NCBI GenBank assembly: GCA_964416235.1
Contig: CAYQDP010000001.1
Coordinates: forward strand, 1-31,189
Origin: an uncultured Flavobacteriaceae bacterium
Lineage (GTDB): Bacteria; Bacteroidota; Bacteroidia; B-17B0; Aurantibacillaceae
Direction: 5' to 3'
Length of the DNA stretch: 31,189 bases
Part shown: positions 3,280 to 30,100 of the stretch, in pieces
How positions within the stretch are numbered: the stretch's first letter is position 1
How the letters are laid out: every line of letters starts with the position of its first letter
Program-made: the position numbers and the translations under genes
The notes under the pieces: model-generated
The model's input: the letters and a program-made list of their open reading frames with translations, nothing else
What the model was told of the DNA's origin: nothing
Databases searched by the model: none

Positions 3280-4200
3280 ATGCGAATTCTTATTGCCTTT
3301 CTACTTGTCTTTGGGTCTGCGCTAAGCAAGGCACAAAACTGGTGTCCGCCCGGCGCTATATGGAAGCACGCTATGTATGGGTTTCAGTGCGTAGGTTATT
3401 CAGATCTCATTTATATTGGAGACACGGCTATTCAATCAAAAACGTGCAAAAAAATAAACCATCGTTTTATAGGTTACAATCCAATGTTTGCACCAACCGG
3501 GACGGTCAACGTTTCTATTACAAACCATTTTGCTTATGAAAACAACAAAGTGATTTACTATTTCAACATCAACTCTCAATTTGATACACTCTTTAATTTC
3601 AACGCGGGAATTGGTGATAAATGGCTACGTGTTGTTTCTCCGCATGGCGGTTCGTGCAATGTTGTTCCCCGAAAGGTTGTTGAGGTGTTGGATACAGGAA
3701 GCGTTACGTTAAACGCTGTACAATTAAGAAAATTGGTTTTGAAATATACTCACGTTTATATGAGCACTTTCACAACAACGGTTATCGATACCGTATATGA
3801 AAAAATCGGAAGCAAGCAGAACTTCTTATTTCCTTTTGTTTGTGAAGGAGCGATTGTGGATCCGGATATTTTAGCCGGCGGAGCGTTTAGATGTTATTTT
3901 GATAATTCATTTGGTAATTACAATGTATCTAGTAATTGTAATTACATAAATAATATTGATGTAAGCGTTTTAATTCCTGAAAAGTTTGTCTTGTTTCCAA
4001 ATCCCACAACAACGCGTTTTAAACTTCAGGGAGATTTTATCATGAATACAATTCGTGTATTTGATGTGTGCGGAAGGGAAAAGCAAATAAACATTATCGA
4101 TGATGAAGTAGATGTTTCTGCTCTTGATTGCGGAATCTATTTCGTGGCAGTAATAAACAAGCAAGGAAATATTGTTCGCGCGCGGTTTGTGAAATTATAA
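3280..4200 (+). CDS. T9SS type A sorting domain-containing protein, unknown function
   Basis: Sec-type signal peptide (MRILIAFLLVFGSALSKAQ) and C-terminal domain motifs FPNP...VFDVCGR...GIYFV...RFVKL. Confidence 0.85.
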   Translation: MRILIAFLLVFGSALSKAQNWCPPGAIWKHAMYGFQCVGYSDLIYIGDTAIQSKTCKKINHRFIGYNPMFAPTGTVNVSITNHFAYENNKVIYYFNINSQFDTLFNFNAGIGDKWLRVVSPHGGSCNVVPRKVVEVLDTGSVTLNAVQLRKLVLKYTHVYMSTFTTTVIDTVYEKIGSKQNFLFPFVCEGAIVDPDILAGGAFRCYFDNSFGNYNVSSNCNYINNIDVSVLIPEKFVLFPNPTTTRFKLQGDFIMNTIRVFDVCGREKQINIIDDEVDVSALDCGIYFVAVINKQGNIVRARFVKL

Positions 4201-4242: not shown

Positions 4243-4274
4243 AAAAAAGCCCGATTGCTCGGGCCTTTGTTTTT
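4243..4274. terminator. Bidirectional intrinsic terminator between convergent genes
   Basis: A run, GCCCGA-TTGC-TCGGGC, then a T-rich tail. Confidence 0.75.
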
Positions 4275-5565
4275 ATTTACTGTTCATGATGTCTTCTATT
4301 TCTTCTGCCTCTAATGGAATGTTTTTCATTAAGTCAACCTGACCTTTTGTTGTAATGAGAATATTATTCTCTAAGCGAATGCCCAGGTTTTCTTCAGGAA
4401 TATAAATCCCCGGCTCAACCGTGAACACCATTCCCGGACGCATAGGTTCATTAAAGAAACCAACATCATGAACATCTAATCCCAAGAAATGAGATGTGCC
4501 GTGCATGAAGTATTTTTTATAAGCGGGCCAGGCAGGGTTTTGCTTTTTTACATCAGAGGCTTTGATAAGTTTTAATTTTAAAAGTTCTTCGGTCATTAAC
4601 TCCCCAACAGCCTTGTTATATTTCTCAAAGGTATTGCCGTCTTTTAGCATTTTGGTTGCGGCTTTCATTACGCGCAAAACAGCATTGTAAACTGCTTTCT
4701 GGCGTTTGCTGAATTTTCCGCTTACAGGAATACAACGCGTTAAATCGCTGGCGTAATTAGAATATTCTGCGGCAGTATCTAAAAGTAAAACATCTCCGGC
4801 TTTACATTGTTTGTTGTTTTCCACATAGTGAAGAACACAAGCGTTGTGTCCGCTAGCAATAATGGGCCCATAGGCAAAGCCTTGGCTTCTGTTTCTAACA
4901 AACTCGTGAATTAATTCCGCTTCAATTTCATATTCCCACACACCTGGTTTCACGAACTTCAATAAACGACGAAATCCTTTTTCGGTAATGTCGCAAGCTT
5001 GTTGAATAAGCTCGATTTCGTAGGTGCTCTTAATCGCGCGAATTTTATGCATGATAGGGGCGGAGCGCTCAAATTTGTGCAATGGAAACTTCTCCTTCAT
5101 CCATTTTGCAAAACGCATTTCTGCAGTTTCTGTATCAATATAACGACGCGTGTGTTCATTGCTATTCAGATAAACAAATTCTGCCTGAAAAATCAAGGTT
5201 TTTAAAACCTTTTCAAATTCATGATACCAAAATATGGTTTCGATACCACTAACGTTCGTCGCTTGCCCTTTAGTTAATTTAGCGCCTTCCCAAATCGCGA
5301 TTAATTCGCTTGTTTCCTTAACAAATAAAATTTCGCGCATTTTATTGTCTTTAGCGTCGGGAAACAATACTAAAATGGTGTCTTCCTGATCAACACCGGT
5401 TAAATAGAACAAATCGCTGTTTTGTCGGAACCCCATGGCTCCGTCGGCGTTTGTTGGTAAAATATCGTTGCTTACAAACACACTAATCGCGCCGGGCTTT
5501 AAATGTTGGCGATAACGGTTTCTGTTTTCTATAAAAAGATTGTTTTTAATAGGAGCGTATTTCAT
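4273..5565 (-). CDS. pepP: Xaa-Pro aminopeptidase (peptidase M24B, aminopeptidase P)
   Basis: N-terminal FRQNSDLFYLTG; metal ligands in LLDTAAEYSNYASDLTR, HGTSHFLGLDVHD, TVEPGIY and RLENNI. Confidence 0.92.
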   Translation of the reverse strand: MKYAPIKNNLFIENRNRYRQHLKPGAISVFVSNDILPTNADGAMGFRQNSDLFYLTGVDQEDTILVLFPDAKDNKMREILFVKETSELIAIWEGAKLTKGQATNVSGIETIFWYHEFEKVLKTLIFQAEFVYLNSNEHTRRYIDTETAEMRFAKWMKEKFPLHKFERSAPIMHKIRAIKSTYEIELIQQACDITEKGFRRLLKFVKPGVWEYEIEAELIHEFVRNRSQGFAYGPIIASGHNACVLHYVENNKQCKAGDVLLLDTAAEYSNYASDLTRCIPVSGKFSKRQKAVYNAVLRVMKAATKMLKDGNTFEKYNKAVGELMTEELLKLKLIKASDVKKQNPAWPAYKKYFMHGTSHFLGLDVHDVGFFNEPMRPGMVFTVEPGIYIPEENLGIRLENNILITTKGQVDLMKNIPLEAEEIEDIMNSK

Positions 5566-5581
5566 AGTGTAGAAATTTTGA

Positions 5582-6796
5582 TTACGAAGATAAGGTATTT
5601 ATAGGATTTAATTTTTGGGCAATTACCCACACGAAGTTTTTACGCAACTCGTTAATAAAGCGCAATTTAACCTCGTCATCCATTTTCACACTAGTGGTAT
5701 CTGAGCAAAAGTTTTGCAAACTGTCGAAATAGTTGAATATAACGGTCTGGTAATTACCCCCATCATCCAGCTCAATGTTTACCAACTGGTAGAGTGAAAT
5801 CTGCCGGATACTTCGGTTTCGGAAAGCTAAAAAACCCTTATAAATTTTGATTCCGTTTTCATCCACCATAAAGCGCGCATACTTGAAGTCGTTTTTGAGC
5901 ATGAGTCCTGCATACAGGGCCAAAACGAATAGGGAAGGAAAAGAAAACAATCCTGTTTGAAGAATGGTTAATGCTCCAATTAAAATAAAGATATATGACG
6001 ACTGAACACCCGGACTGGTAAAAAAGCTGATGTCGGGATTAAAGGCACTAATCGTTTCTTTCTTTTTTAAATAATCAAACTCTTTTTCGCGGACATTGAT
6101 TTCCGTAGTAGTTCCGTCGGTTTTTTGATTTAATAAAATAGCGGTTGCCGAATATAACTCCGGAGCGTTGTTTTTGAATTGTTGTGGTGATTCGAAAAAA
6201 TGTTCAATGGCAACGCTAAGAAATTCATTAATGTTGGCCCCGCCGTATGAGCGAAAAATGCTTGGCAGTCCTTTCTGCAACTTATAAAATTCTTTATAGG
6301 CATAGCAATACCACTTCCAAAAATAATTTTCAAAGAAGTAATCGTTGTTTTCACCACGGATACCATTAAACCTTAAGGCGTGGGCAAACTCGTGTAAACC
6401 TAAATTAATGTTGTCGTTTGGAATACGATATCCTTCAATAAAACTTTTCCAACTGAAAGAAACAAAGCCGGTTAAATTGGTTTCACCTTTTAAATATAGT
6501 CCGCTGATTTCGTTTTTAAAATCCCCAGGAAACAAAATGATAGTATCAAAGTAACCGAGTTGCCAATCTTTTAATCCCAGCGTAAGCTGAACGGCCGACG
6601 CCGAAACAATGGCTTTAACTTTATTATTTATTTCCAGATTTTTTTGCGAAATAAAATTTTTAGAACGAATAAAAACAAGCAATCTCTCAACAAAGAGGTT
6701 TTTATATTCTGATGAGAGAGTAGAATAATAGGAAAAATACTTTTCTAAAAAAGCATGAAGTTCAGCGGGATTTAAGCGAATGTCGTCGGAGGTCAT
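5582..6796 (-). CDS. MtfA-like (M90) zinc metallopeptidase with C-terminal membrane segment and extra domain
   Basis: NLGLHEFAHAL (HExxH), RSYGGANINEFLSVAIEHFFESP and ASAVQLTLGL are typical of the MtfA family. A hydrophobic stretch YIFILIGALTILQTGLFSFPSLFVLALYAGLML follows the peptidase domain. Confidence 0.8.
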   Translation of the reverse strand: MTSDDIRLNPAELHAFLEKYFSYYSTLSSEYKNLFVERLLVFIRSKNFISQKNLEINNKVKAIVSASAVQLTLGLKDWQLGYFDTIILFPGDFKNEISGLYLKGETNLTGFVSFSWKSFIEGYRIPNDNINLGLHEFAHALRFNGIRGENNDYFFENYFWKWYCYAYKEFYKLQKGLPSIFRSYGGANINEFLSVAIEHFFESPQQFKNNAPELYSATAILLNQKTDGTTTEINVREKEFDYLKKKETISAFNPDISFFTSPGVQSSYIFILIGALTILQTGLFSFPSLFVLALYAGLMLKNDFKYARFMVDENGIKIYKGFLAFRNRSIRQISLYQLVNIELDDGGNYQTVIFNYFDSLQNFCSDTTSVKMDDEVKLRFINELRKNFVWVIAQKLNPINTLSS

Positions 6797-12717: not shown

Positions 12718-13293
12718 ATGAGATTTTTGTTTTCAATACTTGTTCTGTTAACCGTTTTTACAAATTGCGGCCGCAGAAACATGTACGAAAAAGAAATTTC
12801 TACCATTGATAGCACAAAGGTTGTATTGCAGGTTAAGCTCAACGAATTGTTGCGCGCCGAAAAAAACATTGAGGTAAGCGCCTTCTCAAAGTTCGAAACC
12901 TATGAATCGTTTTTAAAATCCAACATTAAAGACACACTCAACAAACCCGAAGCGACAGCGATTCAATTGTTTCTGAATTCAGGAAAAACAATCAAGCAAT
13001 TTAATTTATCAAAGGCTGAGTTAATAAAGCAAACAGAGTTGAGTATCGCCCAGCTTCAAAAGCTTTCACTCGATGCCAGAGAAAACAACATTCAGCAAAA
13101 CGCGTTGCAATCATTTTATTCAACCGAAAAAAATCATGCGGAAGAATTAATTGGTGTTATTGAACAAAACATCAAAGCACTTAATTTAAGCATTAACAGT
13201 TATCGCAATAGCTTGCCGCGAACCGAAGAATATATTCGTATCATTAATAACGGCGCTCTGCCTACTGTAGTGGCCGACTCTCAAATCGACTAA
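12718..13293 (+). CDS. Putative lipoprotein, predicted helical/coiled-coil, unknown function
   Basis: Hydrophobic leader ending FTNC. It starts 1 nt after the serS stop, and its stop overlaps the ybeY start (TAATG). Confidence 0.75.
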   Translation: MRFLFSILVLLTVFTNCGRRNMYEKEISTIDSTKVVLQVKLNELLRAEKNIEVSAFSKFETYESFLKSNIKDTLNKPEATAIQLFLNSGKTIKQFNLSKAELIKQTELSIAQLQKLSLDARENNIQQNALQSFYSTEKNHAEELIGVIEQNIKALNLSINSYRNSLPRTEEYIRIINNGALPTVVADSQID

Positions 13294-13780: not shown

Positions 13781-15970
13781 ATGAAAAAACTCTTTACTTT
13801 TTTACTTTCATCTTTTTTTGTTCTTGAATCCTTCGCGCAATCCAGCGCCGATGCCGCGGTTCAAATTAATGCAACCGTTCAAACATCAACACCACAAATA
13901 ACTTTGAATTGGGTAGGGAATGCCACTACAACATCGTATCAGATTTTTCGCAAGTTAAAAACAGCCACCTCTTGGGGCGCCGCCTTGGCCACGCTTACCG
14001 GAACAGTTAACCAGTATGTCGACAATACGGTTAGTGTAGGAACTAATTACGAATACCGCATCATCCGTTCAGGAAGCGGCTATACCGGTTACGGATATAT
14101 CAATTCAGGAATTAATGTTCCTGTTACAGAGTATCGCGGGAAATTAATATTATTAGTGGATAGTACATTTATTACTTCGCTCAATACAGAACTAAAGCGC
14201 TTACAAGAAGATTTGGAAGGAGATGGCTGGGACGTGTTACGACATAACGTACTGCGCACTGCTACTCCGCAACATGTCCGTTCTTTTGTTCAGGCGGATT
14301 ATACCCTTGATCCCACGAACACAAAAGCTGTTTTTATTGTAGGACACGTTCCTGTGCCTTATAGCGGAAATATTAATCCGGATGGTCATCCCGATCATTT
14401 GGGAGCTTGGCCAACGGATACGTATTACGCGGATGTTAATGGTGTGTGGACCGATGTATCCGTAACATCAACAACTGCATCCCCGGCGCGCACACAAAAT
14501 AATCCTGCCGATGGAAAGTTTGATCAAAGCGTTATTCCTAGCGATTTAGAGCTACAGGTTGGTCGCGCAGATTTTGCTAATCTCACTACTTTTACACTTA
14601 CCGAAACACAACTTTTAAAAAACTATCTTGATAAAGACCACGACTATCGTAAAAAAGTTTTTACTGTGGTGAAACGCGCTGTTATTGATGATAATTTCGG
14701 ATACTTTAGCGGAGAAGCTTTTGCGGCGAGTGGTTATAAAAATGCTGCGTGTATGGTGCCAACATCAAGCATTACAGCGGCCGATTATTTTACAAGCATG
14801 ACTGGAAATAATTATCAATGGTCGTATGGTTGCGGCGGCGGAACTTATACCAGCGCTTCAGGTATCGGAAACACATCAAATTTTTCTACAGCTAATTTAC
14901 AAGGTGTGTTCACCATGTTGTTTGGTTCGTACTTTGGAGACTGGGATTCGCAAGATAATTTTTTACGCGCCGCTCTAGCACAAGGAAAAATTTTGACTAA
15001 CGTTTGGTCGGGTCGTGTTCATTACCAATTACACCATATGGGACTTGGTGAAAATATTGGATATGGTGTTAAGTTAACACAAAACAGTATTGGCTCTTTG
15101 TATTTCAGCAGTCCAACCGGAATTACCGGACGCTGGATTCATCATGGATTAATGGGCGACCCAACATTGCGCAACGACATAGTGGCGCCGGTTTCTAATG
15201 TAGTGGCTACAAAAGTTGGGAACAATTGTAATATTTCCTGGACAGCATCGCCTGAACCGGGCGTATTGGGGTACAACATTTATATGAAGAACGACACTAA
15301 CACGAATTATGTAAAAATTAATTCAGCTCTAATTGCAGGCACAACTTATACCGATAATTGTCTTTTATATAAAGGAATTTATAAATACATGGTGCGAGCT
15401 TATAAATTAGAGACTACGCCCAGCGGTTCGTATTATAACATGAGTGAAGGAATTGCTGATACAGCCAACAGCACTAACGGCATGAAAGCCTATGCTTCGT
15501 TTAGTTTATCGGTGAGCGGAACAACGGTTAACGTAACCAATCTTTCCGTAAATACCACCGCGAACAACTGGAATTTTGGAGATGGAGGAACGTCTACAAG
15601 TGTAAACGCTGCACACACCTATACTGCAAACGGTTCTTATACCATTACATTAATCAGCAGCAACAGTTGTAATAGCGATACGGCGAAGCTGGTAGTTAAT
15701 ATAATTTCCGCATCCATCAATGAATTAAATTCAATTAGCGCAACTGTTTATCCAAATCCTAGTAACGGAAAAATTACTGTAATATTAAACAACAGAGACA
15801 ACGAGGCGTATGAGGCAACAGTTTATAATCAGGAAGGAAAATTAATACAGCGCAAATTAAATGTAAGAGATCGGATTGATTTTGACTTATCAAGTGAAGC
15901 ATCCGGATTATATTTCTTGCAATTGAGAAACGAAAAAGGAGTGTACTCCCAAAAATTCGTCATTGAGTAA
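13781..15970 (+). CDS. T9SS cargo: FN3-like + gingipain/C25-like domain + FN3-like + PKD + type A CTD
   Basis: Signal peptide; VFIVGHVPVP, ELQVGRADF, LKNYLDKDHDYR and LMGDPTLR resemble C25 landmarks; WNFGDG (PKD); VYPNP...SGLYFL...QKFVIE (CTD). Confidence 0.75.
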   Translation: MKKLFTFLLSSFFVLESFAQSSADAAVQINATVQTSTPQITLNWVGNATTTSYQIFRKLKTATSWGAALATLTGTVNQYVDNTVSVGTNYEYRIIRSGSGYTGYGYINSGINVPVTEYRGKLILLVDSTFITSLNTELKRLQEDLEGDGWDVLRHNVLRTATPQHVRSFVQADYTLDPTNTKAVFIVGHVPVPYSGNINPDGHPDHLGAWPTDTYYADVNGVWTDVSVTSTTASPARTQNNPADGKFDQSVIPSDLELQVGRADFANLTTFTLTETQLLKNYLDKDHDYRKKVFTVVKRAVIDDNFGYFSGEAFAASGYKNAACMVPTSSITAADYFTSMTGNNYQWSYGCGGGTYTSASGIGNTSNFSTANLQGVFTMLFGSYFGDWDSQDNFLRAALAQGKILTNVWSGRVHYQLHHMGLGENIGYGVKLTQNSIGSLYFSSPTGITGRWIHHGLMGDPTLRNDIVAPVSNVVATKVGNNCNISWTASPEPGVLGYNIYMKNDTNTNYVKINSALIAGTTYTDNCLLYKGIYKYMVRAYKLETTPSGSYYNMSEGIADTANSTNGMKAYASFSLSVSGTTVNVTNLSVNTTANNWNFGDGGTSTSVNAAHTYTANGSYTITLISSNSCNSDTAKLVVNIISASINELNSISATVYPNPSNGKITVILNNRDNEAYEATVYNQEGKLIQRKLNVRDRIDFDLSSEASGLYFLQLRNEKGVYSQKFVIE

Positions 15971-16001: not shown

Positions 16002-16040
16002 AAATCCCGTATTTTCGTGAAGAATGCGGGATTTTTTTAT
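16002..16040 (+). terminator. Terminator-like hairpin overlapping the M1 peptidase promoter and start codon
   Basis: AAATCCCGTATT-N9-AATGCGGGATTT followed by a T run. It contains the near-consensus -7 box TATTTTCG (16010-16017) and the ATG at 16024. Confidence 0.55.
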
Positions 16041-17649
16041 TTATATATTTTTAGGTTTAGCTTTTGTTTCGTTCGGACAAAAAACAAAATATACACACGC
16101 CGACTCCATTAAAGGTAAGATTACAAAAGAGCGAGAGTGGTGGAACGTACTGCATTATGATTTAAACGTTTCTTTTAATCCTTCTGACAGCAGCATTAGG
16201 GGACGAAATAAAATTACGTTTAGAGCATTAACGTCAGGAAAAACACTGCAAATCGATTTGCAGGCACCAATGGTGTTAGATAGTGTTTTACAGGCAGGAA
16301 AAAAATGTGTTTGGAAAAAAGATGGAGATGCTTATTTCGTTGAGTTGAACGTAGCCATTGACAAATCTATCACCGAAAACATCATTACGTATTTTCATGG
16401 CAAGCCGCATGTTGCAAAAATTCCACCATGGGACGGCGGTCTTATATGGAAAAAAGACAAGAACAAGAATCCGTGGATTTCGATTGCGTGTCAGGGCATG
16501 GCCGGAAGCGTTTGGTTTCCTTGCAAAGATCATATGTATGATGAACCCGACAGCACACGCTTTACAATTGAAAATGTTCCTGAAGGACTTGTTGCTGTTT
16601 CTAACGGTCGGCTTAAAGCGGCAAACGAAAACAGTAACGGAAGCGCAAGTTATATTTGGGAAGTTAAAAACCCTATCAACAATTATAACATCATTCCTTA
16701 TATTGGAAAGTACGTGTATTTTAGTGATACCATATTGGGCGAGAAGGGCGAACTAAAGTTAAACTACTGGGTATTGGATTACAACCTGGAAAAAGCCAAG
16801 CAACAATTTAAGCAAACGAAAAGCATGCTGCATTGTTTCGAGTATTGGTTTGGTCCTTATCCTTTTTATGAAGACGAGTATAAACTAGTGGAGGCGCCCC
16901 ATTTGGGAATGGAACATCAAAGCGCTGTAGCCTATGGAAACGGTTACGTAAATGGATATATGGGGCGCGATTTATCCTTAACGGGATGGGGACTTAAATG
17001 GGATTTTATTATTGTACACGAATCCGGGCACGAATGGTTTGGAAATAATATTTCGGTAAAAGATGTCGCAGATAATTGGGTACACGAAGGCTTTACAGCG
17101 TACTCCGAAAATTTATATACCGAATATTTGTTTGGAAAAAAAGCCGGGGCAGAATATGTAATCGGAACACGTAAAAGCGTAATGAACGACAAGCCTGTTA
17201 TTGGCGATTACGAAGTAAATAATGATGGTTCCGGAGACAAATATTATAAAGCCTCTAACATGCTACATACAATTCGTTATATTCTTAATAACGATTCAAT
17301 ATGGCGGGCTTTTTTGCGCGACATCAATAAAACATTCTATCACCAAACCGTTAGTTCCAAACAAGTAGAAGAGTTTATGATTTCATATTTGAAGTTGGAT
17401 TTACAAAAGGTGTTTGATCAATATCTTCGCACGACACAAATTCCGGTTCTTCAGTATAAATTAAAAAAGGGAAAACTAAGTTATCGTTGGGCAAATTGCG
17501 TGGAAGGGTTTAACATGCCGCTCAGAATTAATACTTCCAAAGGAAGTTTAATGCTCAAACCCACCACTCAGTTTCAGGACGTGAAAATTAAATCTACGGC
17601 TTTTGGTCCGGATGAAAATTATTATATAGAAATGGCGAAGATTAATTAA
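16024..17649 (+). CDS. M1 family zinc aminopeptidase, exported
   Basis: GMEHQS exopeptidase motif, HESGHEWFGN (HExxH), WVHEGF third ligand, YYKAS catalytic Tyr region, and a signal peptide. Confidence 0.92.
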   Translation: MRDFFIYIFLGLAFVSFGQKTKYTHADSIKGKITKEREWWNVLHYDLNVSFNPSDSSIRGRNKITFRALTSGKTLQIDLQAPMVLDSVLQAGKKCVWKKDGDAYFVELNVAIDKSITENIITYFHGKPHVAKIPPWDGGLIWKKDKNKNPWISIACQGMAGSVWFPCKDHMYDEPDSTRFTIENVPEGLVAVSNGRLKAANENSNGSASYIWEVKNPINNYNIIPYIGKYVYFSDTILGEKGELKLNYWVLDYNLEKAKQQFKQTKSMLHCFEYWFGPYPFYEDEYKLVEAPHLGMEHQSAVAYGNGYVNGYMGRDLSLTGWGLKWDFIIVHESGHEWFGNNISVKDVADNWVHEGFTAYSENLYTEYLFGKKAGAEYVIGTRKSVMNDKPVIGDYEVNNDGSGDKYYKASNMLHTIRYILNNDSIWRAFLRDINKTFYHQTVSSKQVEEFMISYLKLDLQKVFDQYLRTTQIPVLQYKLKKGKLSYRWANCVEGFNMPLRINTSKGSLMLKPTTQFQDVKIKSTAFGPDENYYIEMAKIN

Positions 17650-19050: not shown

Positions 19051-20757
19051 ATGAAATCAAATTTACACAAATCAATTTTAAGCCTCGGCATCATTTGCGC
19101 AGGCGTATTAAATGCACAAACAACAGTAACCGGACCAAGCAGTACTCAATCGCCGTATTTGCTTCCTTCTACTCCTAACACAACTATTACATCTATCATG
19201 ACCGCAACGAATGTGGTTGGAACTTATACCGTGGCAGGATTAATGGATGGAATGGGCGCATACGATAACGGCGACGGAACCTTTACTGCTTTAATTAATC
19301 ATGAAATCGGAAACACCGTAGGATCTGTTAGAGCGCATGGTCATATAGGGGCTTTTGTTTCTAAGTGGGTAATCAATAAATCAAATTTGTCTGTTGTTAG
19401 TGGCAGCGATTTAATTCAAGGCCTTCAGTTGTGGAATGGTACGTCTTATACATTATACAACGCCAGCAACACTTCTACGTTGGCTCAAATTGGGAGATTG
19501 TGTTCGGCTGATTTACCTGCACAAACCGCTTTTTATAATAGCGCTACATCTAAAGGAACACAAAATAAAATCTTTTTAAGTGGAGAAGAAGTGGGTAACG
19601 AAGGAAGATGTTTTGCACATGTTGTAAGTGGACCTGATGCGGGGACATCATATCAGCTGCCTTATTTAGGCCGGTTCTCTTGGGAAAACGCCTTAGCATC
19701 ACCCGTAGCACAAGATAAAACGATTGTTGTTGGTTTAGATGATTCTTCTCCGGGACAAGTTTATGTTTATATCGGGAATAAAACGAACACAGGATTAGAT
19801 ATTGATAAAGCAGGATTAACAGGAGGAACTCTTTACGGAGTTGCTGTAACAGGAATGCCGGTAGAAACATCAACAATGGTTATTCCTACTAACACTACAT
19901 TTTCTTTGGTTAGTTTGGGTAACGTTTCAGCTGTTTCAGGCTCAACACTCAATGCAAATAGCATCAGCTCTAATGTAACAAACTTTCTTCGTCCCGAAGA
20001 TGGTGCATGGGATCCTTCAGCACCAAATGATTTTTATTTTGTTACGACCAATGGTTTCGGAAATCCAAGCAGAATGTATCGTTTGCGTTTTAATAATATT
20101 AATACCCCTGAGAATGGCGGAACAATAACCGCAGTGCTTGATGGTACTGAAGGACAGCAAATGATGGATAACCTGTGTATGGACGGAAACGGACACGTAT
20201 TAATTCAGGAAGACCCGGGAAACCAAGCGCACGTAGCAAAAATTTGGGAATATAACGTTGCGACAGACGCCTTAACACAATTAGCAACTCACGACGCTAC
20301 GCGCTTTGTTACAGGCGGAACAAATTTTTTAACGCAAGATGAAGAATCATCTGGAATTATTGATATGAATTCAATATTAGGACCTGGATGGTTTTTATTT
20401 GTTGATCAGGCACATTATTCTATTCCCGCTCCTGTTATGGAAGGCGGACAGCTTTTAGCTCTGTATAAGCCGGCATTGGCAACAGGAATAGCATCTAAGG
20501 AAAATGCTAATTCTTCGTTTAACTTGTACCCAAACCCTGCAGCAGACATTGTTACTATTGCATTAAATATAAGTCAACCTGAGCTTGCAAGCATTAAAGT
20601 GAAAGATGTTTCCGGACGCGTGATAGTTGAATTACAAAGCAAATCGTCAGAAAATGTTCTTAATATTAATACGGTTGATTTTTCAAACGGAATTTACATG
20701 GTTGAGGTAACGGCCGGAGATTTCATTATGCAGAAGAAACTGGTTGTTACACATTAA
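19051..20757 (+). CDS. PhoX/DUF839-like beta-propeller phosphatase with T9SS type A CTD
   Basis: Ordered motifs INHE, RLCSA, SGEE, RFSWENA, GLDD, RPEDG, MDNL, QEDPG and ESSGII parallel the PhoX metal-ligand motifs. Sec-type leader; LYPNP...NGIYMV...KKLVV CTD. Confidence 0.7.
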   Translation: MKSNLHKSILSLGIICAGVLNAQTTVTGPSSTQSPYLLPSTPNTTITSIMTATNVVGTYTVAGLMDGMGAYDNGDGTFTALINHEIGNTVGSVRAHGHIGAFVSKWVINKSNLSVVSGSDLIQGLQLWNGTSYTLYNASNTSTLAQIGRLCSADLPAQTAFYNSATSKGTQNKIFLSGEEVGNEGRCFAHVVSGPDAGTSYQLPYLGRFSWENALASPVAQDKTIVVGLDDSSPGQVYVYIGNKTNTGLDIDKAGLTGGTLYGVAVTGMPVETSTMVIPTNTTFSLVSLGNVSAVSGSTLNANSISSNVTNFLRPEDGAWDPSAPNDFYFVTTNGFGNPSRMYRLRFNNINTPENGGTITAVLDGTEGQQMMDNLCMDGNGHVLIQEDPGNQAHVAKIWEYNVATDALTQLATHDATRFVTGGTNFLTQDEESSGIIDMNSILGPGWFLFVDQAHYSIPAPVMEGGQLLALYKPALATGIASKENANSSFNLYPNPAADIVTIALNISQPELASIKVKDVSGRVIVELQSKSSENVLNINTVDFSNGIYMVEVTAGDFIMQKKLVVTH

Positions 20758-20923: not shown

Positions 20924-23131
20924 ATGAAGTCACGCAATATTTTTACCCTTTTTCTGATCTCTTTTAGTACTGTATCTGTTTTCTCGCAAGAAGACAGTGT
21001 AAAAACACTTAATCTTCCTGAAATCGAAATCAACCAAAAGCCTCTTAAAAATGAAATTGAACGAATGCCTGAAGTATTAGGCACATCAATTTATGCAGGA
21101 AAAAAGAACGAGGTTATTAAACTGGGAAACATTGACGCTGATTTATCTGTAAACAATTCACGTCAGGTTTTTGGAAAGGTGCCCGGTGTTACGGTGTGGG
21201 AAAATGATGGGTCAGGAATTCAAGTGGGTGTTTCAACAAGAGGATTAAGCCCTAATCGCTCTTGGGAATTTAACATCCGTCAAAACGGAGCCGACATAAG
21301 CGGTGAAACGTTTGGATATCCTGAAGCATATTATAGCCCGCCTTTAGAAGGAGTAGAACGCATTGAAGTAATTCGCGGCGCTGCATCTTTACAATATGGC
21401 CCGCAATTTGGAGGCTTATTAAACTATGTAATGAAAAAGGGTAACGCGTACAAGCCTTTGGTTTTTGAAACTCAACAAACATTTGGAACATACGGATTAT
21501 TTAATTCATACAACGCGTTAGGCGGAACGTATAAAAAAGTTTCTTATTATGCTTTTTTTCATCATCGTGGAGCTGATAGTTGGAGGGATAACAACCGTTA
21601 TACAATCAATGCCGGTTATGCGGCCATTAATTATTCCGTTACTTCTAAACTTAATATCGGAATTCAATATACGCGCAGTAGTTATTTAAGTCAGCAACCT
21701 GGCGGACTAACCGACTCGTTATTTAATGTTGATGCACAGCAATCTTTCCGTAAACGTAATTGGACTTCAGCGCCATGGAATGTGGCGACAGTTTATGCTG
21801 ACTATAATATTTCAGAGAATACAAAATTGAACATTAAATTATTTGGGGTGTTAGCCGAGAGAACAAATGTTGGATTTGTAAGAGCCATTAATATAGCTGA
21901 TACATTTAATACAAGCATAAAATCTTTTAATCCTCGCCAGGTAGACAGAGATTATTACAGCAATTATGGAGGAGAAATTCGTTTTTTACAAATGTATAAC
22001 TTGATGAAACAGAAGAGCGCATTAGCAGCCGGCGTACGTGTTTATCAAGGAAATATTTTACGACGTCAGCTGGGCGTAGGAACCACTGGAGATGATTACG
22101 ACGTAACCATTGCTTCACAATCTAATGGAAAAGATTTTTCTAAAGAATATAATTATAACACTGACAACATAGCTTTCTTTTTAGAAAACATGTTTAAAAT
22201 CGGAAAGCGTTTGAGCATCACTCCCGGTGTTCGTTACGAAATTATTAATTCATCTGCCAAAGGATATTTAAACACAAGTGCTACCGGAACTTTTACGCCT
22301 GTTAGTGAAAACAGAAATGTTGTTTTATTTGGAGCAGGAGCAGAATTTCAGACAACAAGTACAACAAATTTGTACGCGAATTTTAGTCAGTCATATCGCC
22401 CGGTTACATATTCTGAATTAACCCCTTCTGGAACAACAGATGTAGTTGATCCAAACTTAAAGGACGCAAGCGGATATAACATTGACGGTGGCTTCAGAGG
22501 GAAAATTAAGGATTACTTGAGTTTTGACATTGGAGGGTTTTATTTACTCTACGATAATAGAATAGGCACAATTACTCAAAATGGTTTACCGTTTAAGACA
22601 AATATTGGTACATCTGTTAGTCAGGGAGCGGAGGGCTTCGTTGAAATTGATCCAATTCGTGCGTTTACTGCAAACTCTCCTGTTGGATACATCACGTTGT
22701 ATGCTTCATACGCGTATGTAGACGCGAAGTATACCCGTTGGGATAACCCTGCTATTGCAAACGATCCTGCAAAATCAATTGTTGGTAAACGTGTTGAGTA
22801 CGCGCCACAGAATATTGGACGTTATGGAGCAACATATATTTATAAGAATATCTCTGCTACATTTCAGTTAAGTCAAGTTAGTGAGGTTTATTCTGATGCA
22901 GCGAACACTGAAAAATATAATCACGCAGCAACTGTAGGTGTTGTGCCGGCTTATATGGTAATGGATGCATCGTTAACAGTATTGTTTGCAAAAAAATACA
23001 ACTTAAAAGCCGGGGTGAATAACCTAAGCGATGAAAAATATTTTACCCGTCGTGCAGGAGGATACCCTGGCCCGGGCATTATGCCGGCTAATGGAAGAAC
23101 TATCTTCGTGAGTATTGGCGCAAAGATTTAA
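20924..23131 (+). CDS. TonB-dependent receptor, FecA-like
   Basis: Plug motifs RGLSPNRS and VERIEVIRGAASLQYG; C-terminal GVNNLSDEKYFTRR...GRTIFVSIGAKI beta-strand. Confidence 0.9.
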   Translation: MKSRNIFTLFLISFSTVSVFSQEDSVKTLNLPEIEINQKPLKNEIERMPEVLGTSIYAGKKNEVIKLGNIDADLSVNNSRQVFGKVPGVTVWENDGSGIQVGVSTRGLSPNRSWEFNIRQNGADISGETFGYPEAYYSPPLEGVERIEVIRGAASLQYGPQFGGLLNYVMKKGNAYKPLVFETQQTFGTYGLFNSYNALGGTYKKVSYYAFFHHRGADSWRDNNRYTINAGYAAINYSVTSKLNIGIQYTRSSYLSQQPGGLTDSLFNVDAQQSFRKRNWTSAPWNVATVYADYNISENTKLNIKLFGVLAERTNVGFVRAINIADTFNTSIKSFNPRQVDRDYYSNYGGEIRFLQMYNLMKQKSALAAGVRVYQGNILRRQLGVGTTGDDYDVTIASQSNGKDFSKEYNYNTDNIAFFLENMFKIGKRLSITPGVRYEIINSSAKGYLNTSATGTFTPVSENRNVVLFGAGAEFQTTSTTNLYANFSQSYRPVTYSELTPSGTTDVVDPNLKDASGYNIDGGFRGKIKDYLSFDIGGFYLLYDNRIGTITQNGLPFKTNIGTSVSQGAEGFVEIDPIRAFTANSPVGYITLYASYAYVDAKYTRWDNPAIANDPAKSIVGKRVEYAPQNIGRYGATYIYKNISATFQLSQVSEVYSDAANTEKYNHAATVGVVPAYMVMDASLTVLFAKKYNLKAGVNNLSDEKYFTRRAGGYPGPGIMPANGRTIFVSIGAKI

Positions 23132-23814
23132 TTTTTGCAAGCACAACCGGGTTTGTTACAACTCACCATTATTTTTTCGGCTACTTTTGAGGAAAGCACG
23201 GCATTCTCTCCATTTTTATATTTTACTTTTACAGAACCATCAAATAAAAATATTTTTTCTACACTCAACTTTTCATTAAGCCCTATTTTTAAATCGGTTA
23301 AATAATTCAAGAACTCAGCGCTGTCTTCATTTACGCCAAGCACTGTGCATTTACAACCTTCTACACTATTTAACAACGGGCGCCGTATACTTACCGGTAG
23401 CTTACCGCTTTTATCTGGTATTGGATCTCCGTGCGGATCAAACTTCGGCTCGCCGCTCAGCGTGTAAATTCTGTCAATCAATTTTTCGGAATTTACATTT
23501 TGTAATTGCTCCGCCATTTCGTGAACTTCATTCCAACCAAACTTACACACCTTGTGCAAAAAGGTTTCCCAAATCCTGTGTTTGCGGATAACGCTTAATG
23601 CCTCTTTCTCTCCATTACGCGTAAGTTGCGCGCCTTCAATCTTAGTGTATGTAATAAGTTTTTCTTTTACCAAAACCTGAAGCCTTTCGAGAACGGTTGG
23701 CGGTTTTAAATCGAGATAATAAGCCAAATCACTCAGACTAACTTTATTGTTTTTTTCGGTGTGACTAATGGCATAAATGGCTCGTAAATATTTTTGGTCG
23801 GATGTCTTTAACAT
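23128..23814 (-). CDS. DtxR/MntR-family metalloregulator with FeoA/SH3-like domain and degenerate primary metal site
   Basis: YLRAIY, HTH, RKHRIWETFL, EVHEMAEQL, DPHGDPIP, and a C-terminal FeoA-like domain. Confidence 0.92.
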   Translation of the reverse strand: MLKTSDQKYLRAIYAISHTEKNNKVSLSDLAYYLDLKPPTVLERLQVLVKEKLITYTKIEGAQLTRNGEKEALSVIRKHRIWETFLHKVCKFGWNEVHEMAEQLQNVNSEKLIDRIYTLSGEPKFDPHGDPIPDKSGKLPVSIRRPLLNSVEGCKCTVLGVNEDSAEFLNYLTDLKIGLNEKLSVEKIFLFDGSVKVKYKNGENAVLSSKVAEKIMVSCNKPGCACKN

Positions 23815-23818
23815 GGCA

Positions 23819-23826
23819 CAAAGATA
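23819..23826 (-). promoter_or_regulatory. -7 promoter element (TATCTTTG) of the DtxR-family gene
   Basis: TAnnTTTG match 4 nt before the ATG. Confidence 0.7.
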
Positions 23827-23831
23827 CCAAA

Positions 23832-23847
23832 ATTAGGTATACCTAAT
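23832..23847. promoter_or_regulatory. DtxR/MntR-type operator, perfect palindrome ATTAGGTATACCTAAT
   Basis: 16-bp perfect palindrome with TTAGGT...ACCTAA half-sites like known DtxR-family boxes, lying between divergent promoters. An extra half-site ATTAGGT is at 23854-23860. Confidence 0.85.
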
Positions 23848-23866
23848 AATAAAATTAGGTTCTTTG

Positions 23867-23874
23867 TATTTTTG
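23867..23874 (+). promoter_or_regulatory. -7 promoter element (TATTTTTG) of the second TonB receptor
   Basis: TAnnTTTG match 4 nt before the GTG at 23879. Confidence 0.65.
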
Positions 23875-23878
23875 CAAT

Positions 23879-25906
23879 GTGAGTTTAAGAGCACTAATAT
23901 TCCTTTTATTACCCTTTTTGTCTTTTGGTCAGAAGCTAAAAGACACACTGGAAAGCAATTCTGTAGAAGAGGTTGTTATTACCGGCACGCTAAAGGAAAT
24001 TAGTAAAGACGATAGCCCGGTAAATATCGACATTATTACGCCTAAACTTTTCCAGAAAACAGCCACACCTAATTTGTTTGAGGCTACTTCATTAGTCAAC
24101 GGAGTAAAACCACAAATTAATTGTAATGTGTGTAATACCGGCGATATTCATATAAACGGAATGGAGGGTCCGTATACACTTATTTTAATTGACGGGATGC
24201 CTATTGTTAGCGGACTGTCCTCAGTATATGGTTTAATGGGAATTCCGGCAAGTATGATTGAGCGATTGGAAATTGCAAAAGGTCCGGCCGGTGCGCTTTA
24301 CGGTTCGGAAGCGATGGGAGGAACAATAAATTTAATTACCAAAAACGCATCGCTTGCACCAAAGTTTTATGCCGATTATTTCGGAACTTCTTATCTCGAA
24401 AACAATTTAGACATTAGCACCAAATTAAAATTGGGAAATAAAGCGAGCTGGCTAATCGGCGCCAATGCCTATTGGTACGATACACCTTCCGACATTAACA
24501 ACGATGGCTTTACCGATGTGACGTTGCAAAAACGTATCTCCGGTTTTAATAAAATTAATTTTAACAGGAAAGAAAATCGCGAAGCAAGCATTGCCGCTCG
24601 GTATGTTTATGAAGACCGTTGGGGCGGACAAATGAATTGGGATAAAAACTTCAGAGGAGGTGACAGTATTTACGGAGAAAGTATTTTCACCAATCGCGCT
24701 GAGGTAATTGCAAAATATCAATGGCCGGTTAACGATAGAATTATTACGCAACTATCCTATAATTTACATGATCAGGATTCTTATTACGGTACCACACCAT
24801 TTATGGCGTTTCAGTCAACGGCGTTTGCGCAAACCTACTGGAATAAGTCAGTAGGAAGAAAGAAGCGCCATGATATGTTAATCGGACTCGCTTATAAAAA
24901 TTTATGGTATGATGACAGTACACCAATAACAGAAGTAAACGAACAATCGCACACAGCAGGTTTATTTCTTCAAGACGAAATCACGTTAGATTCCCTTAGT
25001 AAACACAAACTATTGTTAGGATTCAGGGGCGACTATAACAACGTGTATAATTTTATTCCCTCTCCGCGCATCGCGTATAAGTGGGCACCGTCATATAAAT
25101 TTATTTTTCGTTTAAATGCAGGTACCGGATTCAGAATTGTAAATGTGTTTACCGAAGATCACGCCGCATTAACAGGCGCGCGCAAAGTGGAGTTCGTAGA
25201 TAAAATCAAACCGGAACAATCCTATAACACAACGCTTAATTTTATTTATAAAATGAAGGTGAGCGCAGCTTCTATGATTGTTTGGGACGCTTCTGTTTTT
25301 TATTATTACTTTACGAATAAAATTGTAGCTAACTACGATTTAAATCCCGATAAAGTAATTTACAACAATCTCACCGGTTACGCGTATTCACAAGGCGCAT
25401 CATTAAATGCATCGTTGGCTAGTCCGGGAAATTTTAAGTTTAATATTGGTGCAACGTATTCAGATGTTCAAAACATCAACAAAGATTCAAGCGGCAAACA
25501 AGTGGCATCGTGGCAACTGCAATCACCGCGATGGAGTGGAAATATTATCATAGGATACAATATTCCAAAACACAATGTAAAGTTGGATATCACCGGAAAT
25601 TGGTATGGTCCGCAGCGTTTACCGATTTTACCAAAAGATTACCGACCACAATACTCGCCGTGGTTTTGTTTACTCAACGCGCAAGTATCAAAAACAGTAA
25701 AGGATAAATTTGAAGTTTATGTCGGAGCCAAGAATATTTTAAATTTTATTCCTCAAAATCCAATCATGCGGCCTCAAGATCCTTTTGATAAATCAGCGAA
25801 TGATGCAAGCACAAATCCAAATGGCTATACGTTCGATCCTTCATACAATTACGCGCCTATACAAGGTTTACGTTTTTACGTTGGTTTTCGTTTAACACTT
25901 AATTAG
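23879..25906 (+). CDS. TonB-dependent receptor with CxxC motif in the plug domain
   Basis: EEVVITGT TonB-box region, INCNVCNTGDIHINGMEG, IERLEIAKGPAGALYGSEAMGGTINLITK, and terminal RFYVGFRLTLN. A GTG start at 23879 gives a clean signal peptide (MSLRALIFLLLPFLSFGQ); the track's TTG at 23864 lies upstream of the -7 box. Confidence 0.88.
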   Translation: MSLRALIFLLLPFLSFGQKLKDTLESNSVEEVVITGTLKEISKDDSPVNIDIITPKLFQKTATPNLFEATSLVNGVKPQINCNVCNTGDIHINGMEGPYTLILIDGMPIVSGLSSVYGLMGIPASMIERLEIAKGPAGALYGSEAMGGTINLITKNASLAPKFYADYFGTSYLENNLDISTKLKLGNKASWLIGANAYWYDTPSDINNDGFTDVTLQKRISGFNKINFNRKENREASIAARYVYEDRWGGQMNWDKNFRGGDSIYGESIFTNRAEVIAKYQWPVNDRIITQLSYNLHDQDSYYGTTPFMAFQSTAFAQTYWNKSVGRKKRHDMLIGLAYKNLWYDDSTPITEVNEQSHTAGLFLQDEITLDSLSKHKLLLGFRGDYNNVYNFIPSPRIAYKWAPSYKFIFRLNAGTGFRIVNVFTEDHAALTGARKVEFVDKIKPEQSYNTTLNFIYKMKVSAASMIVWDASVFYYYFTNKIVANYDLNPDKVIYNNLTGYAYSQGASLNASLASPGNFKFNIGATYSDVQNINKDSSGKQVASWQLQSPRWSGNIIIGYNIPKHNVKLDITGNWYGPQRLPILPKDYRPQYSPWFCLLNAQVSKTVKDKFEVYVGAKNILNFIPQNPIMRPQDPFDKSANDASTNPNGYTFDPSYNYAPIQGLRFYVGFRLTLN

Positions 25907-27130: not shown

Positions 27131-30100
27131 TTACCATAATTGGTAATCAAGAACAGTGTTTTCCATGCGGTATGTTGGGGTTTGTTTTCCCCCTGAGAGA
27201 TTGTTTACTTCTTCCGCGACATACTTTTGCAGCTCACTTAATACTACTTTCTTATCATGATTTAAATCAGCCTTAAAATTGTTTAAGCCTTCCAACACAC
27301 AATGTGTAAATAATCCGTTCTTCCATTTCTCTCCTTCAAAAGCAGCTTCTGTTCCTCCGGCTGATGAGATAATTGTAGCGCCTGAATTTTGTCTTAAGTC
27401 GGAGAAAATGGCTTTCGACATTTCCATGGCTGTAGTTTGTGTAAAAGCTTTTCCTGCAATACGCACATCGCGTCCGTCTTTATTTTTCTTTTCTTCTCCA
27501 CCTTCCTCATTAAAGATATCTTCATCAACCTCTCCGCTAAAACAAGCATCAATAAACATTAATTTTCTGATTGGTTTCATTTTGGTAAATAATTTTTCGA
27601 ATTCTTTAAACGCAACCGAATTAATTTTCGGATCAGAAAAATCAGTATAATAAGTAGGAAAGTAATAGCTTAAATCTTCGTCTAAATAACCATGTCCCGC
27701 AAAAAACACCATCACCACATCATTAATGTTGGCTTTATCAAAAAACGTTTTTAATTGCTTCACAGAATCGGTTGTAAAAGATTGATTAAATAGTTTTTTG
27801 ATTTCTATTTTACCAAACGACTTTGAATTACTCATCATGTTGGCCATATCGCTGGCATCTTTTACGGCGTAAGACAAATCAAAATCAGTATTCTTAAATT
27901 TTTCGGAGGCTACCACAACCATGTAAAGATTAGGCTTCACTTCTTTGGTATTATTGTAGAGTCTTACTGTACGCGGACTCTCCAATCCGTTTTCATCGCG
28001 GGCAATAAATTCAAACCGATTGATACCGGAGGCCGTTTCCAATGAAATTGTTTTTTCATAGTGAGATGCCGAGGACTCATTGATGCTTTCAATAAACACC
28101 TGCGTGCCGTTGTTCAGCACAGCAATTTGTTTCAACTTACCTAGCCCTTTATTTAAACTAATCGAAAAATTAATTTTACCCGCACTCTCTTCGTTAAGAT
28201 TTATGTATTGAAAATCGGGATGTGCCGTGAAATTAATTTTACTTCCGGGAGCAATCCCTAAAACTTTCATACGCTTGGTGTATGCTGTTTCATAAGCCTT
28301 AATTAAAGCACTATCACCGCAGCCGAAGGAACGAAGTACTTGATGCGGCTGATTTAAGTAAGCATCGAACTGTTCAAAGCTGAACATTTCACTTTTATAT
28401 TTAAAGCGCATGTTTTTAATAAAATCTTTAGAGCCCATGTAGTGTAATTCCGGAGTAATTATAAAGTAATTATCATTTAATGCGTTCGCAATTTGTCCGA
28501 TTACTTTTTTGTTTTTAAGATCGATGAATGTTGCCAGGGAGGTTGACATTCCGGTTACAATCACTTTATCTTGTTCTTCAATAAAAAAACATTTTGGCAT
28601 TAAAATATTGCTTTCACTTAAATCATACACCTCTTCGGCATTGCTGTTATAAATTTTAAATTGCTTGCCAAGAGCATCACTCAAGGCAAAGAACTTTCCG
28701 TTTTCGCTCGTAGCATGAAAAGGAATAATGTCAGGGGTTTTCGCAAGAGTTTTTGTAAATAACTCTTTTCCGCTTTCAGTTTCGTATTCGGAGTAAACAG
28801 TTTCTTTATACTCACTGTTGTAATTGGCAATGTCGTATTTGATATACCAAATGCCAATTTTTTTACCGCCTTCTTTTAAAAGAAAATCATATGGATAATA
28901 CGACTCTGCGTAATCACGAACGATTTTTTTGCTAACCATATCTATTTTTACAATAGCATTGGTGGGCACTTCGCTTTCATAACCATTAAAGTTTTTCTTT
29001 TTATTGATTTGGGCTGAGGTATAAATAGATTTATTATCCGGACTAATTATAACAGGCGCCGTCATCGACCAGGTCTGGCTTTCAAATTCAGTAGCTTTTG
29101 TTTTACGATTAATGATTTTGTAATTACCTGAGCCGGGAACAAACACCAGGTCTTTAGTAAATGAAATGATTTTATAAATGTTGTTAGCGGCCAGAGAAAA
29201 CATACCCTCGTATTTTTCTTCCGCCATTGTTTTTAAATTAATAATATGCAAAGAGGTAAAATCAGCATAATAGAACTCTCCATTTTTAAATCCGCTTGTA
29301 GAAGCGGTGATATTTTTTTTGATGGTCCGCGTATATTTTTTCTTCGCAATATTGTAGATGTTGAGATTAAAATTTGGATAGGCCTTTCCTGAATTCACAA
29401 CAATTTCAGAATCGTTGAGAAAAAACAAACCATATACAAGAGAAGTGTCGTTATTGCTGATGTCTTTTATCTCGGCGTATTTACTAAAGTTATTTAAGTC
29501 CCAAAGATTTGCTGTGTTAAAGCCTTTGGTGTATAACCAATGTTTGTTCGGGCTTACATCCGCAACGTAAATGGGATTATCCATTGCGGCGCGTTCAGAA
29601 ATAATTTGCATGTTATCAGGTCGGTACACGCGCAATGCTTTGTAAGATGTAAATCCATTCGTAATAAGACGACGACCTTCAGAGGAAAACTTCAGATTAG
29701 TAAAAATGCCTTCAGTTGTTTTTACTAATGTTTTTTTCGGCATGTCAACAAACTTGATGCCTTTCATGGTAAGGCAAACTAACTGAGAGGTGCCTGGCCA
29801 TAGGTCCATATCATAAATATAATCGTCAGCCAGTGTCTTTTCATCAACATTAGTGCTCAGTGCCCTGGGCTTCCGTAAATATTGTTGTTGAGTTGTGTTG
29901 TAGTAGGCCGTGTATTTTTTTGGCATCATAACTTCATAAACAACTTTATTGTTCGTTAAATTAAGCGCAAAAAAATTATCTGATGTCGCACACATCAAAA
30001 GGGAATCTCTGATTTTATATTTACTGACGCTTCCTATATCTTCAATAACAGTTGTTGTTTGGGTTAAATTACTTAATGATTGTTTTATAATGGACGTTAC

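Follow-up and report, generated by a model that had tools for sequence, protein, structure and literature searches.

The ORF at 13781–15970 and the fold of its central domain

The window, that is, the whole 31,189 nucleotide stretch of DNA analysed here, comes from an uncultured Flavobacteriaceae bacterium and includes an open reading frame (ORF) at 13781–15970 on the + strand, whose translation is 729 amino acids (aa) followed by a stop codon. The part of this ORF under study, 14240–15175, was described in an earlier sequence-only reading as a gingipain-fold protein of the type 9 secretion system (T9SS) in which the catalytic dyad had changed from His/Cys to Cys/Ser. An identical copy of the 729 aa protein (P0001) is present in a public collection, and many proteins that are 97–99% identical to it are found in public metagenome assemblies, and we therefore conclude that the gene is real.

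The features of the protein all lie on the + strand. At the N-terminus, inspection by eye identified a putative Sec signal peptide (residues 1–19, MKKLFTFLLSSFFVLESFA followed by Q; 13781–13837), which includes a helix at residues 2–17 in the full-length AlphaFold2 (AF2) model. It is followed by a predicted Fn3-like beta-sandwich at about residues 27–113 (13859–14119), with strands between 29 and 113 modelled at a predicted local distance difference test (pLDDT) score of 72–92 and a match to the Fn3-like 3mpc profile (E 1.2e-4). This sandwich is conserved family-wide and occupies the place of the gingipain prodomain; no match to the PF08126 inhibitory prodomain was returned when the window protein was scanned with Pfam. 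The central domain consists of a gingipain-like N-subdomain (approximately residues 118–290; 14132–14650) and a caspase-like C-subdomain (approximately residues 291–465; 14651–15175). Directly after it, at residues 472–564 (15194–15472), the full-length AF2 model has an Ig/Fn3-like beta-sandwich (pLDDT 83–92) with weak matches to titin Ig domains (E 0.015). A PF03785 match was absent from the Pfam scan. In the gingipains RgpB and Kgp, an immunoglobulin superfamily domain follows the catalytic domain directly (PMC4357240). The remainder of the protein is made up of a PKD domain (residues 570–641; 15488–15703; PF18911 E 1.5e-11, PF00801 E 2.2e-7 and matches to PKD domains in the PDB) and a T9SS type A C-terminal sorting domain (CTD; residues 655–729; 15743–15967), which scored 53.6 bits with PF18962 (cut-off 27) and 51 bits with TIGR04183 (cut-off 23). 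With its signal peptide and CTD, the product is predicted to be a multi-domain extracellular protein exported by the T9SS.

Only the PKD domain and the CTD were recognised when the window protein was compared with Pfam and NCBIfam, and the central domain had no match even at E≤1. Neither Peptidase_C25 (PF01364), the Pfam family to which the sequence-only reading pointed, nor the C14 p20 caspase domain PF00656 was found, and no PDB sequence was found with the central domain by phmmer or by family profile searches. Partial PF01364 matches were present in 18 of 46 diverse relatives (best E 4e-8). Those inspected all fell short of the gathering score of 23 bits (22.5, 16.5, 21.8 and 16.9 bits), and most spanned model positions 44–139, while one Planctomycetota member gave a weak alignment over positions 45–374 of 374.

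The full-length AF2 model was built on a 46-sequence alignment of close relatives and had a pLDDT below 50 over residues 195–455. A template-free AF2 model of residues 108–472 built on 121 relatives had a pLDDT of 83.8 and a predicted template modelling score of 0.89. When this model was used to query the PDB with Foldseek, the sole matches with E<1e-7 were the gingipain entries 6i9a (Kgp; 1.2e-10), 1cvr (RgpB; 8e-10) and 4ief. The weakest of the gingipain matches had an E-value of 3.9e-8, and template modelling (TM) scores were 0.59–0.62 over the whole domain; all other PDB matches had TM scores of approximately 0.2.

A C25 profile was built from the RgpB sequence verified against PDB 4ief_B. 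HHalign matched the family to this profile at 60–85% probability (E 7e-6 to 8e-5), aligning residues 118–222 with RgpB 8–102. The C-subdomain alone reached only 10% probability against C25, alignments made in global mode or with a single RgpB sequence as template were meaningless, and untrimmed alignments matched only the PKD domain and the CTD. Coevolution was assessed by mean-field direct coupling analysis (DCA) of 415 unique family sequences (effective number 260), which ranked 64,620 residue pairs. Strand pairs were recovered at 125–186, 121–153, 185–263, 299–343, 303–335, 348–378 and 379–408. These give a strand order of 4-3-1-2 for the N-subdomain (strands 120–127, 150–157, 181–187 and 259–263) and 2-1-3-4-5 for the C-subdomain, for which the AF2 model of residues 108–472 has strands at 300–304, 331–333, 345–352, 375–382, 406–409 and 457–459. 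In RgpB, the order is 4-3-1-2 in the N-subdomain and 2-1-3-4-5-6 in the C-subdomain, the two forming a pseudo-continuous 10-stranded sheet (PMC4357240; PMC6426963). As three independent lines, the AF2 model with its Foldseek matches, the profile–profile alignment and the coevolution, agree, the gingipain fold proposed in the sequence-only reading is supported, and the central domain is predicted to adopt the two-subdomain fold of MEROPS family C25 in clan CD. The partial PF01364 matches lend further weight to the N-subdomain.

The dyad positions, the active-site loops and two insertions

A His/Cys dyad set on a conserved scaffold is the hallmark of the clan CD peptidases, among them caspases, legumains, gingipains and separase. 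Strand H-beta-3 has the catalytic His at its C-terminal end, and the Cys occupies the corresponding end of H-beta-4 (PMC4357240). All of the strings on which the sequence-only reading relied are present in the protein, namely PDGHPDH (residues 200–206), WSYGCGGG (347–354), TMLFGSYFGD (378–387), HYQLHH (414–419), WIHH (452–455) and LMGDPTLR (457–464), and the spacing between C351 and S383 is indeed 32 residues. Conservation was examined in 151 cluster representatives, which share 33–66% pairwise identity, and in 423 unique sequences.

Several observations place S383 (codon 14927–14929) at the position of the RgpB nucleophile Cys244, as the sequence-only reading had aligned it by eye. In ungapped profile comparisons, the register that sets C244 on S383 was the best, scoring -0.7, with the next best at -6.8, and the same pairing lies on the relaxed HHalign path. 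S383 also directly follows strand 375–382, which DCA pairs with strand 345–352. Together with conservation, these data mark residues 382–389 (G382-S383-Y-F-G386-D387-W-D389; 14924–14947) as the counterpart of loop L4, in which the C25 pattern A-C-x-x-G-x-F has become G-S-x-x-G-D-W. We consider the assignment of S383 to the Cys244 position to be supported. Position 383 is Ser in 418 of 419 sequences. The lone Cys is in P0223, a truncated fragment of 391 aa, and was set aside.

The counterpart of RgpB His211 is less sharply placed. Loop L3 (G350-C351-G352-G353-G354; 14828–14842) was located from HHalign, conservation and the profile registers in the place of RgpB G210-H211-G212. It contains no His, and neither do residues 345–358 or the loop after strand 345–352. 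The profile-register scores for His211 were 0.4 at C351, 0.1 at G352 and -2.8 at G353. The HHalign path puts G353 at His211, and the DCA register (348–378, offset 30) sets residue 353 beside 383. The methods thus disagree and the His211 counterpart is either C351 or G353, each of which would sit in a G-x-G frame like that of G210-H211-G212. The flanking G352 and G354, each kept in 418 of 420 sequences, correspond to or adjoin RgpB G210 and G212, which are substrate- and oxyanion-binding residues (PMC6426963; PMC4357240).

Position 351 is Cys in 115 of the 151 representatives and in 370 of the 423 unique sequences (approximately 88%). The other 36 representatives have A, G, T, S, N, W, F or D there and keep all the other invariant residues; at position 353, the residues found are G, A, P and S. 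As C351 is replaceable, a Cys/Ser dyad is not a feature of the family. The loss of the His/Cys dyad and the Ser at position 383 were borne out; a change from His to Cys at position 351 would at best hold for most members and not for the family. A canonical dyad located elsewhere in the domain was also considered and rejected. No Cys other than C351 is conserved among the 151 representatives, there is no suitably placed His, and no other His/Cys pair is conserved at the canonical positions. With respect to the His-rich segments that had been pointed out, H418 and H454 are mostly conserved, and H414, H419 and H455 vary. The motif LMGDPTLR (15149–15172) was correctly recognised as the terminal motif of the family. 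It aligns confidently with FGDPSLLV, which closes the RgpB catalytic domain, is the sole piece of the C-subdomain to align in this way, and includes the invariant G459 and D460.

Conservation extends well beyond these loops, in members that share 33–55% identity across four phyla. Approximately 36 positions, ten of them Asp, are invariant across 50 genomes. D201, H203, D213, D225, N240, D244, D248, R262, D264, G382, S383 and D460 never vary, and D304, G352, G354, G386, D387, D389 and W409 are nearly invariant. Many of the invariant residues that are specific to the family fall within two insertions. In the HHalign alignments, RgpB has a gap of 12 residues precisely opposite GNINPDGHPDHL (residues 197–208; 14369–14404), so that the PDGHPDH segment does belong to an insertion, as had been suggested. 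This insertion contains D201-x-H203-x-x-H206, with D201 and H203 kept in 419 of 419 sequences and H206 in 415 of 416. A second insertion of about 30 residues relative to RgpB (residues 226–258; 14456–14554) was delimited from the HHalign path, conservation and DCA and carries a GDGKFDQ motif, in which or around which N240, D244 and D248 are invariant and K246 is nearly so. D264, D304 and S383 are the family-specific invariants outside the insertions. The two insertions pack together, with DCA contacts at 197–230, 198–250, 215–247 and 214–256.

Other conserved residues are shared with the gingipains. The HHalign path equates D213 with RgpB D93, D225 with D103 and R262 with R112, all three of which are near-invariant among true C25 enzymes. 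Three structural Ca2+ sites are described for the gingipains; in RgpB, D103 coordinates Ca2+ in one of them, and loop L4 also has a Ca2+ site (PMC4357240, a review). By analogy, D387 and D389 on L4 could serve a Ca2+ site of this gingipain type.

Two DCA pairs, D205–Y384 (rank 124 of 64,620) and P211–W388 (rank 225), connect the D-G-H-x-D-H loop of the first insertion to the G-S-Y-F-G-D-W loop, and three more, 212–456 (rank 19), 212–453 and 200–453, set the segment containing H454 against the same insertion hairpin. This is suggestive of an arrangement in which the insertion loop with D201, H203 and H206 lies against the S383 loop.

The protein resembles the gingipains RgpB and Kgp (C25, clan CD; 1cvr, 4ief, 6i9a) in its predicted two-subdomain alpha/beta fold and strand order, in the G-x-G loop after H-beta-3 and the x-x-x-G-D-aromatic loop after H-beta-4, in the N-subdomain motifs GD/GH...P, D213, D225 and R262, and in the terminal GDP motif and the T9SS CTD; a putative Ig-like domain after the catalytic-type domain may be a further common feature. 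Unlike the gingipains, it has no catalytic His and has Ser in place of the catalytic Cys, it carries a Fn3-like domain instead of the PF08126 prodomain, and it includes the 12- and approximately 30-residue insertions with their invariant D, H, N and K residues. It also lies below the Pfam threshold, and HMM-to-sequence searching of the PDB is blind to it. PorU, the C25 sortase of the T9SS (PDB 6za2), is likewise a C25-type domain in a T9SS context, and is found with the RgpB sequence at E 1e-8. It was not among the significant Foldseek matches of our model, and only one of the 46 relatives had a weak match to a PorU model (E 0.04). PorU keeps Cys/His chemistry. As the protein is below the PF01364 threshold and both catalytic residues have been lost, it is not a C25 peptidase and is best described as belonging to a C25-like sister family within clan CD.

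Size, distribution and gene context of the family

The family is very large, unnamed and without a Pfam or NCBIfam model. Clustering at 50% identity gave 3,508 clusters at E≤1e-3 and 1,889 at E≤1e-30, there are more than 3,000 clusters at 90% identity, and at least 571 loci were found in a scan of one genome per species. Database names for its members are 'T9SS type A sorting domain-containing', 'PKD repeat protein' or 'hypothetical', and no description of the family was found in literature searches. The best 80 loci are from Bacteroidota (Sphingobacteriia, Chitinophagales, Saprospiraceae and Flavobacteriales), many Planctomycetota, Acidobacteriota (Thermoanaerobaculia) and Omnitrophota. The hosts are environmental members of these phyla and not Porphyromonas, the setting of the gingipains. 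The non-Bacteroidota members inspected lack a T9SS CTD and have other C-terminal ends. Hence, the description as a T9SS protein holds for the window protein, where the CTD exceeds both cut-offs, and does not extend to the family, as the module also occurs in phyla that do not have a T9SS.

In longer members, the module is fused to PA14, LamG-like (DUF1349), PG_binding_1, SprB, Big, PKD or Fn3 domains. A Planctomycetota member (L055, 5602–7746) ends in GGGCAAGTGSIVPFVAVALVLVWRRRRR, which consists of a Cys/Gly-rich segment, a transmembrane helix and an Arg tail and looks like a sorting signal of the exosortase or MYXO-CTERM type. An Acidobacteriota member (L069, 5629–8109) contains FG-GAP repeats, and in an Omnitrophota member (L073, 4618–7473) weak matches to a GDSL-like lipase and to cadherin-like domains are located N-terminal to the module.

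No gene neighbour is conserved among the 80 loci, and the largest neighbour cluster was found at only 10 of them. Tandem paralogues lie directly downstream at L057 and about eight other loci, and one recurrent 'neighbour' proved to be such a paralogue. In some of the tandem copies, the G-x-G-x-G loop is followed by an additional insertion such as GAGGQASDGGVLTFNGATN, with S383 and the D-x-H-x-x-H motif retained. The gene in the window is between ybeY and an M1 peptidase gene, and in Aurantibacillus the family gene is between polA and rpoN. Upstream in the window, serS and ybeY are separated by a 191 aa ORF at 12718–13293 (+), which has a lipoprotein-like N-terminus, is without a Pfam match and overlaps the ybeY start codon with its last bases. 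The order serS, ORF, ybeY upstream of the family gene recurs at about five closely related loci (the L001 group).

Three metallopeptidase genes are found at 4273–6796 (−) and 16024–17649 (+), encoding an M24 Xaa-Pro aminopeptidase, an M90 peptidase and the M1 peptidase. Of these, the M1 gene immediately follows the family gene, in a neighbourhood that relatives do not share. Two further ORFs specify a T9SS CTD. In the 306 aa product of 3280–4200 (+) it is the sole recognisable feature (E 5.6e-8), the rest having no Pfam match; the 568 aa product of 19051–20757 (+) also has a partial match to PhoX alkaline phosphatase and is a second likely T9SS cargo, encoded a few kb downstream of the family gene. 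None of the T9SS core genes is within the 31,189 nucleotide window, and the presence of a T9SS in the host genome is likely because of these two CTD-bearing ORFs. The region 20924–25906, which encodes a TonB-dependent receptor, a DtxR-type metal-dependent repressor with a FeoA domain (−) and a second TonB-dependent receptor, is probably a metal (iron) uptake unit. At 27131–30676 (−), a 1181 aa ORF combines WD40-type propeller repeats with a C-terminal Peptidase_C14 caspase domain (E 3e-15). The dyad motifs of this domain, FFAGHGY and FIDACFSGE, are canonical, and the product is therefore a true clan CD protein of the orthocaspase type. Scanning the window for Rfam families and tRNAs gave no match.

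Possible functions of the domain

What the analysis establishes is an extracellular protein with a C25 fold that lacks the His/Cys dyad, always has Ser in place of the nucleophile and carries a family-specific, invariant D-x-H-x-x-H insertion. The observation is real and well above chance. To explain it we favour, with a probability of roughly 0.45, an active extracellular hydrolase that dispenses with cysteine chemistry and uses Ser383 with His and Asp residues from the insertion, possibly together with a metal. This reading is favoured because neighbouring positions drift and the Ser and two His do not vary at all, because the glycine loop for substrate binding and the oxyanion hole is kept, and because conservation across four phyla is enzyme-like. 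In such an enzyme, Ser383 would act as the nucleophile, and the oxyanion hole, which in RgpB is built from the main-chain NH groups of G212 and C244, could here be built from those of G354 and S383. The D201-x-H203-x-x-H206 insertion in the N-subdomain would provide, in trans, either the general base or a metal site, and D225, D387 and D389 would probably keep the structural Ca2+ sites of the gingipains. As relatives fuse the module to PA14, LamG-like, PG_binding_1, PKD and Fn3 domains, the substrates may be sought among polymers or cell surfaces outside the cell, to which these fusions point. That the family would be the first clan CD lineage with a changed catalytic type, in which the invariant Ser is combined with a His/Asp cluster, possibly metal-loaded, from a new insertion, is a more tentative proposal.

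A number of points weigh against an active hydrolase. We know of no clan CD enzyme with a Ser nucleophile. The classical nucleophile elbow G-x-S-x-G is absent, the sequence F-G-S-Y-F-G being G-S-x-x-G on a clan CD fold, and the DCA pairs D205–Y384 and P211–W388 that would bring the insertion to the Ser are only moderately ranked. For many of the invariant Asp residues, binding of structural Ca2+ may be explanation enough. The former S1 pocket may also be filled by an Arg of the protein itself. E312 (14714–14716), at the start of the first C-subdomain helix and topologically at the position of the RgpB S1 residue Asp163, covaries with R412 (15014–15016) in loop L5. Of 423 sequences, 362 have E/R at this pair, and those without the Arg have D/Y or N/I, which may reflect an internal salt bridge. 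Finally, the Cys-to-Ser variants of clan CD, the pseudo-orthocaspases, are presumed inactive (PMC6426788).

Several of these points would be accommodated by a pseudoprotease, which the sequence-only reading had also named. Such a module would bind ligands or mediate adhesion without catalysis, as a surface receptor or adhesin that the T9SS or other anchors display, with the gingipain cleft as its binding site and the invariant Asp and His residues forming structural Ca2+ or Zn2+ sites. Both dyad residues are lost, the covariation of E312 with R412 suggests that the S1 pocket is occupied, and one of the three structural Ca2+ sites of the gingipains uses D103, the equivalent of D225 (PMC4357240). 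Domains typical of adhesins are present here (Fn3, Ig and PKD) and in relatives (PA14, cadherin-like, SprB and FG-GAP), and conserved partner genes are absent. The pseudo-orthocaspases, C14 variants in which the dyad has changed from His/Cys to Tyr/Ser and which form a clan CD family of their own, provide a precedent (PMC6426788). Like the present family, they have a clan CD fold, have replaced the nucleophile Cys with Ser, have lost the His and are conserved as a separate family. They are C14 p20 domains, cytoplasmic and mostly cyanobacterial, unlike the secreted protein of C25 architecture described here, which belongs to a more widely distributed and strongly conserved family with an added invariant D-x-H-x-x-H insertion. 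The same accessory domains are carried by secreted hydrolases, however, and some 36 invariant positions in 50 genomes, including a Ser and two His flanked by variable residues, would be unusual for an adhesin. We regard a pseudoprotease as the main rival of the active hydrolase and as somewhat less likely. A metalloenzyme on the gingipain scaffold appears improbable. In it, a catalytic, water-activating metal would be held by D201, H203 and H206, possibly assisted by D213 and H454, and S383 would only shape the site or bind substrate. The D-x-H-x-x-H motif, the invariant H206-x6-D213 spacing and the ten invariant Asp fit such a site, and DCA sets the segment 452–456, which contains H454, against residues 198–214. 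Weak matches to the LAS zinc peptidase MepA (M74) were also obtained with three or four of the 46 relatives (E 0.017–0.07). These matches are far below threshold, a second HxH motif was not found, and the LAS peptidases (MepA/M74, VanX/M15) have a different fold, so that what they share with the family, the H-x6-D spacing and weak matches in a few members, is a short-motif resemblance only. Moreover, the D/H cluster is at the subdomain interface, where Kgp has a structural Ca2+ site (PMC6426963), and it may be structural for this reason; the strict invariance of S383 would also be left unexplained. A Cys nucleophile had been among the options of the sequence-only reading. A working cysteine protease with a shifted dyad, in which C351 would act as nucleophile with help from S383 or from a His elsewhere, is very unlikely. 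The prevalence of Cys at this position and the profile register that sets C351 at the His211 position in the active-site loop speak for it, but the 36 representatives that lack this Cys keep every other invariant residue, and no other Cys is conserved.

The family retains the clan CD scaffold and the substrate-binding glycine loop, and combines these with a Ser that is invariant where the nucleophile would be and with a new, likewise invariant Asp/His insertion. Whether it is active or inactive, the central domain merits a Pfam or NCBIfam model of its own. If inactive, the family would be among the largest and best conserved of bacterial pseudoprotease families, and the question would be which ligand fixes approximately 36 residues. 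If it is active, as we tentatively favour, it would show a cysteine-protease fold switching catalytic type. A Ser/His-Asp enzyme would represent a new and widespread serine-type or metal-assisted family in environmental Bacteroidota, Planctomycetota and Acidobacteriota, and an active family would mean that freshwater, soil and wastewater bacteria have a further, unannotated class of extracellular enzymes for degrading polymers.

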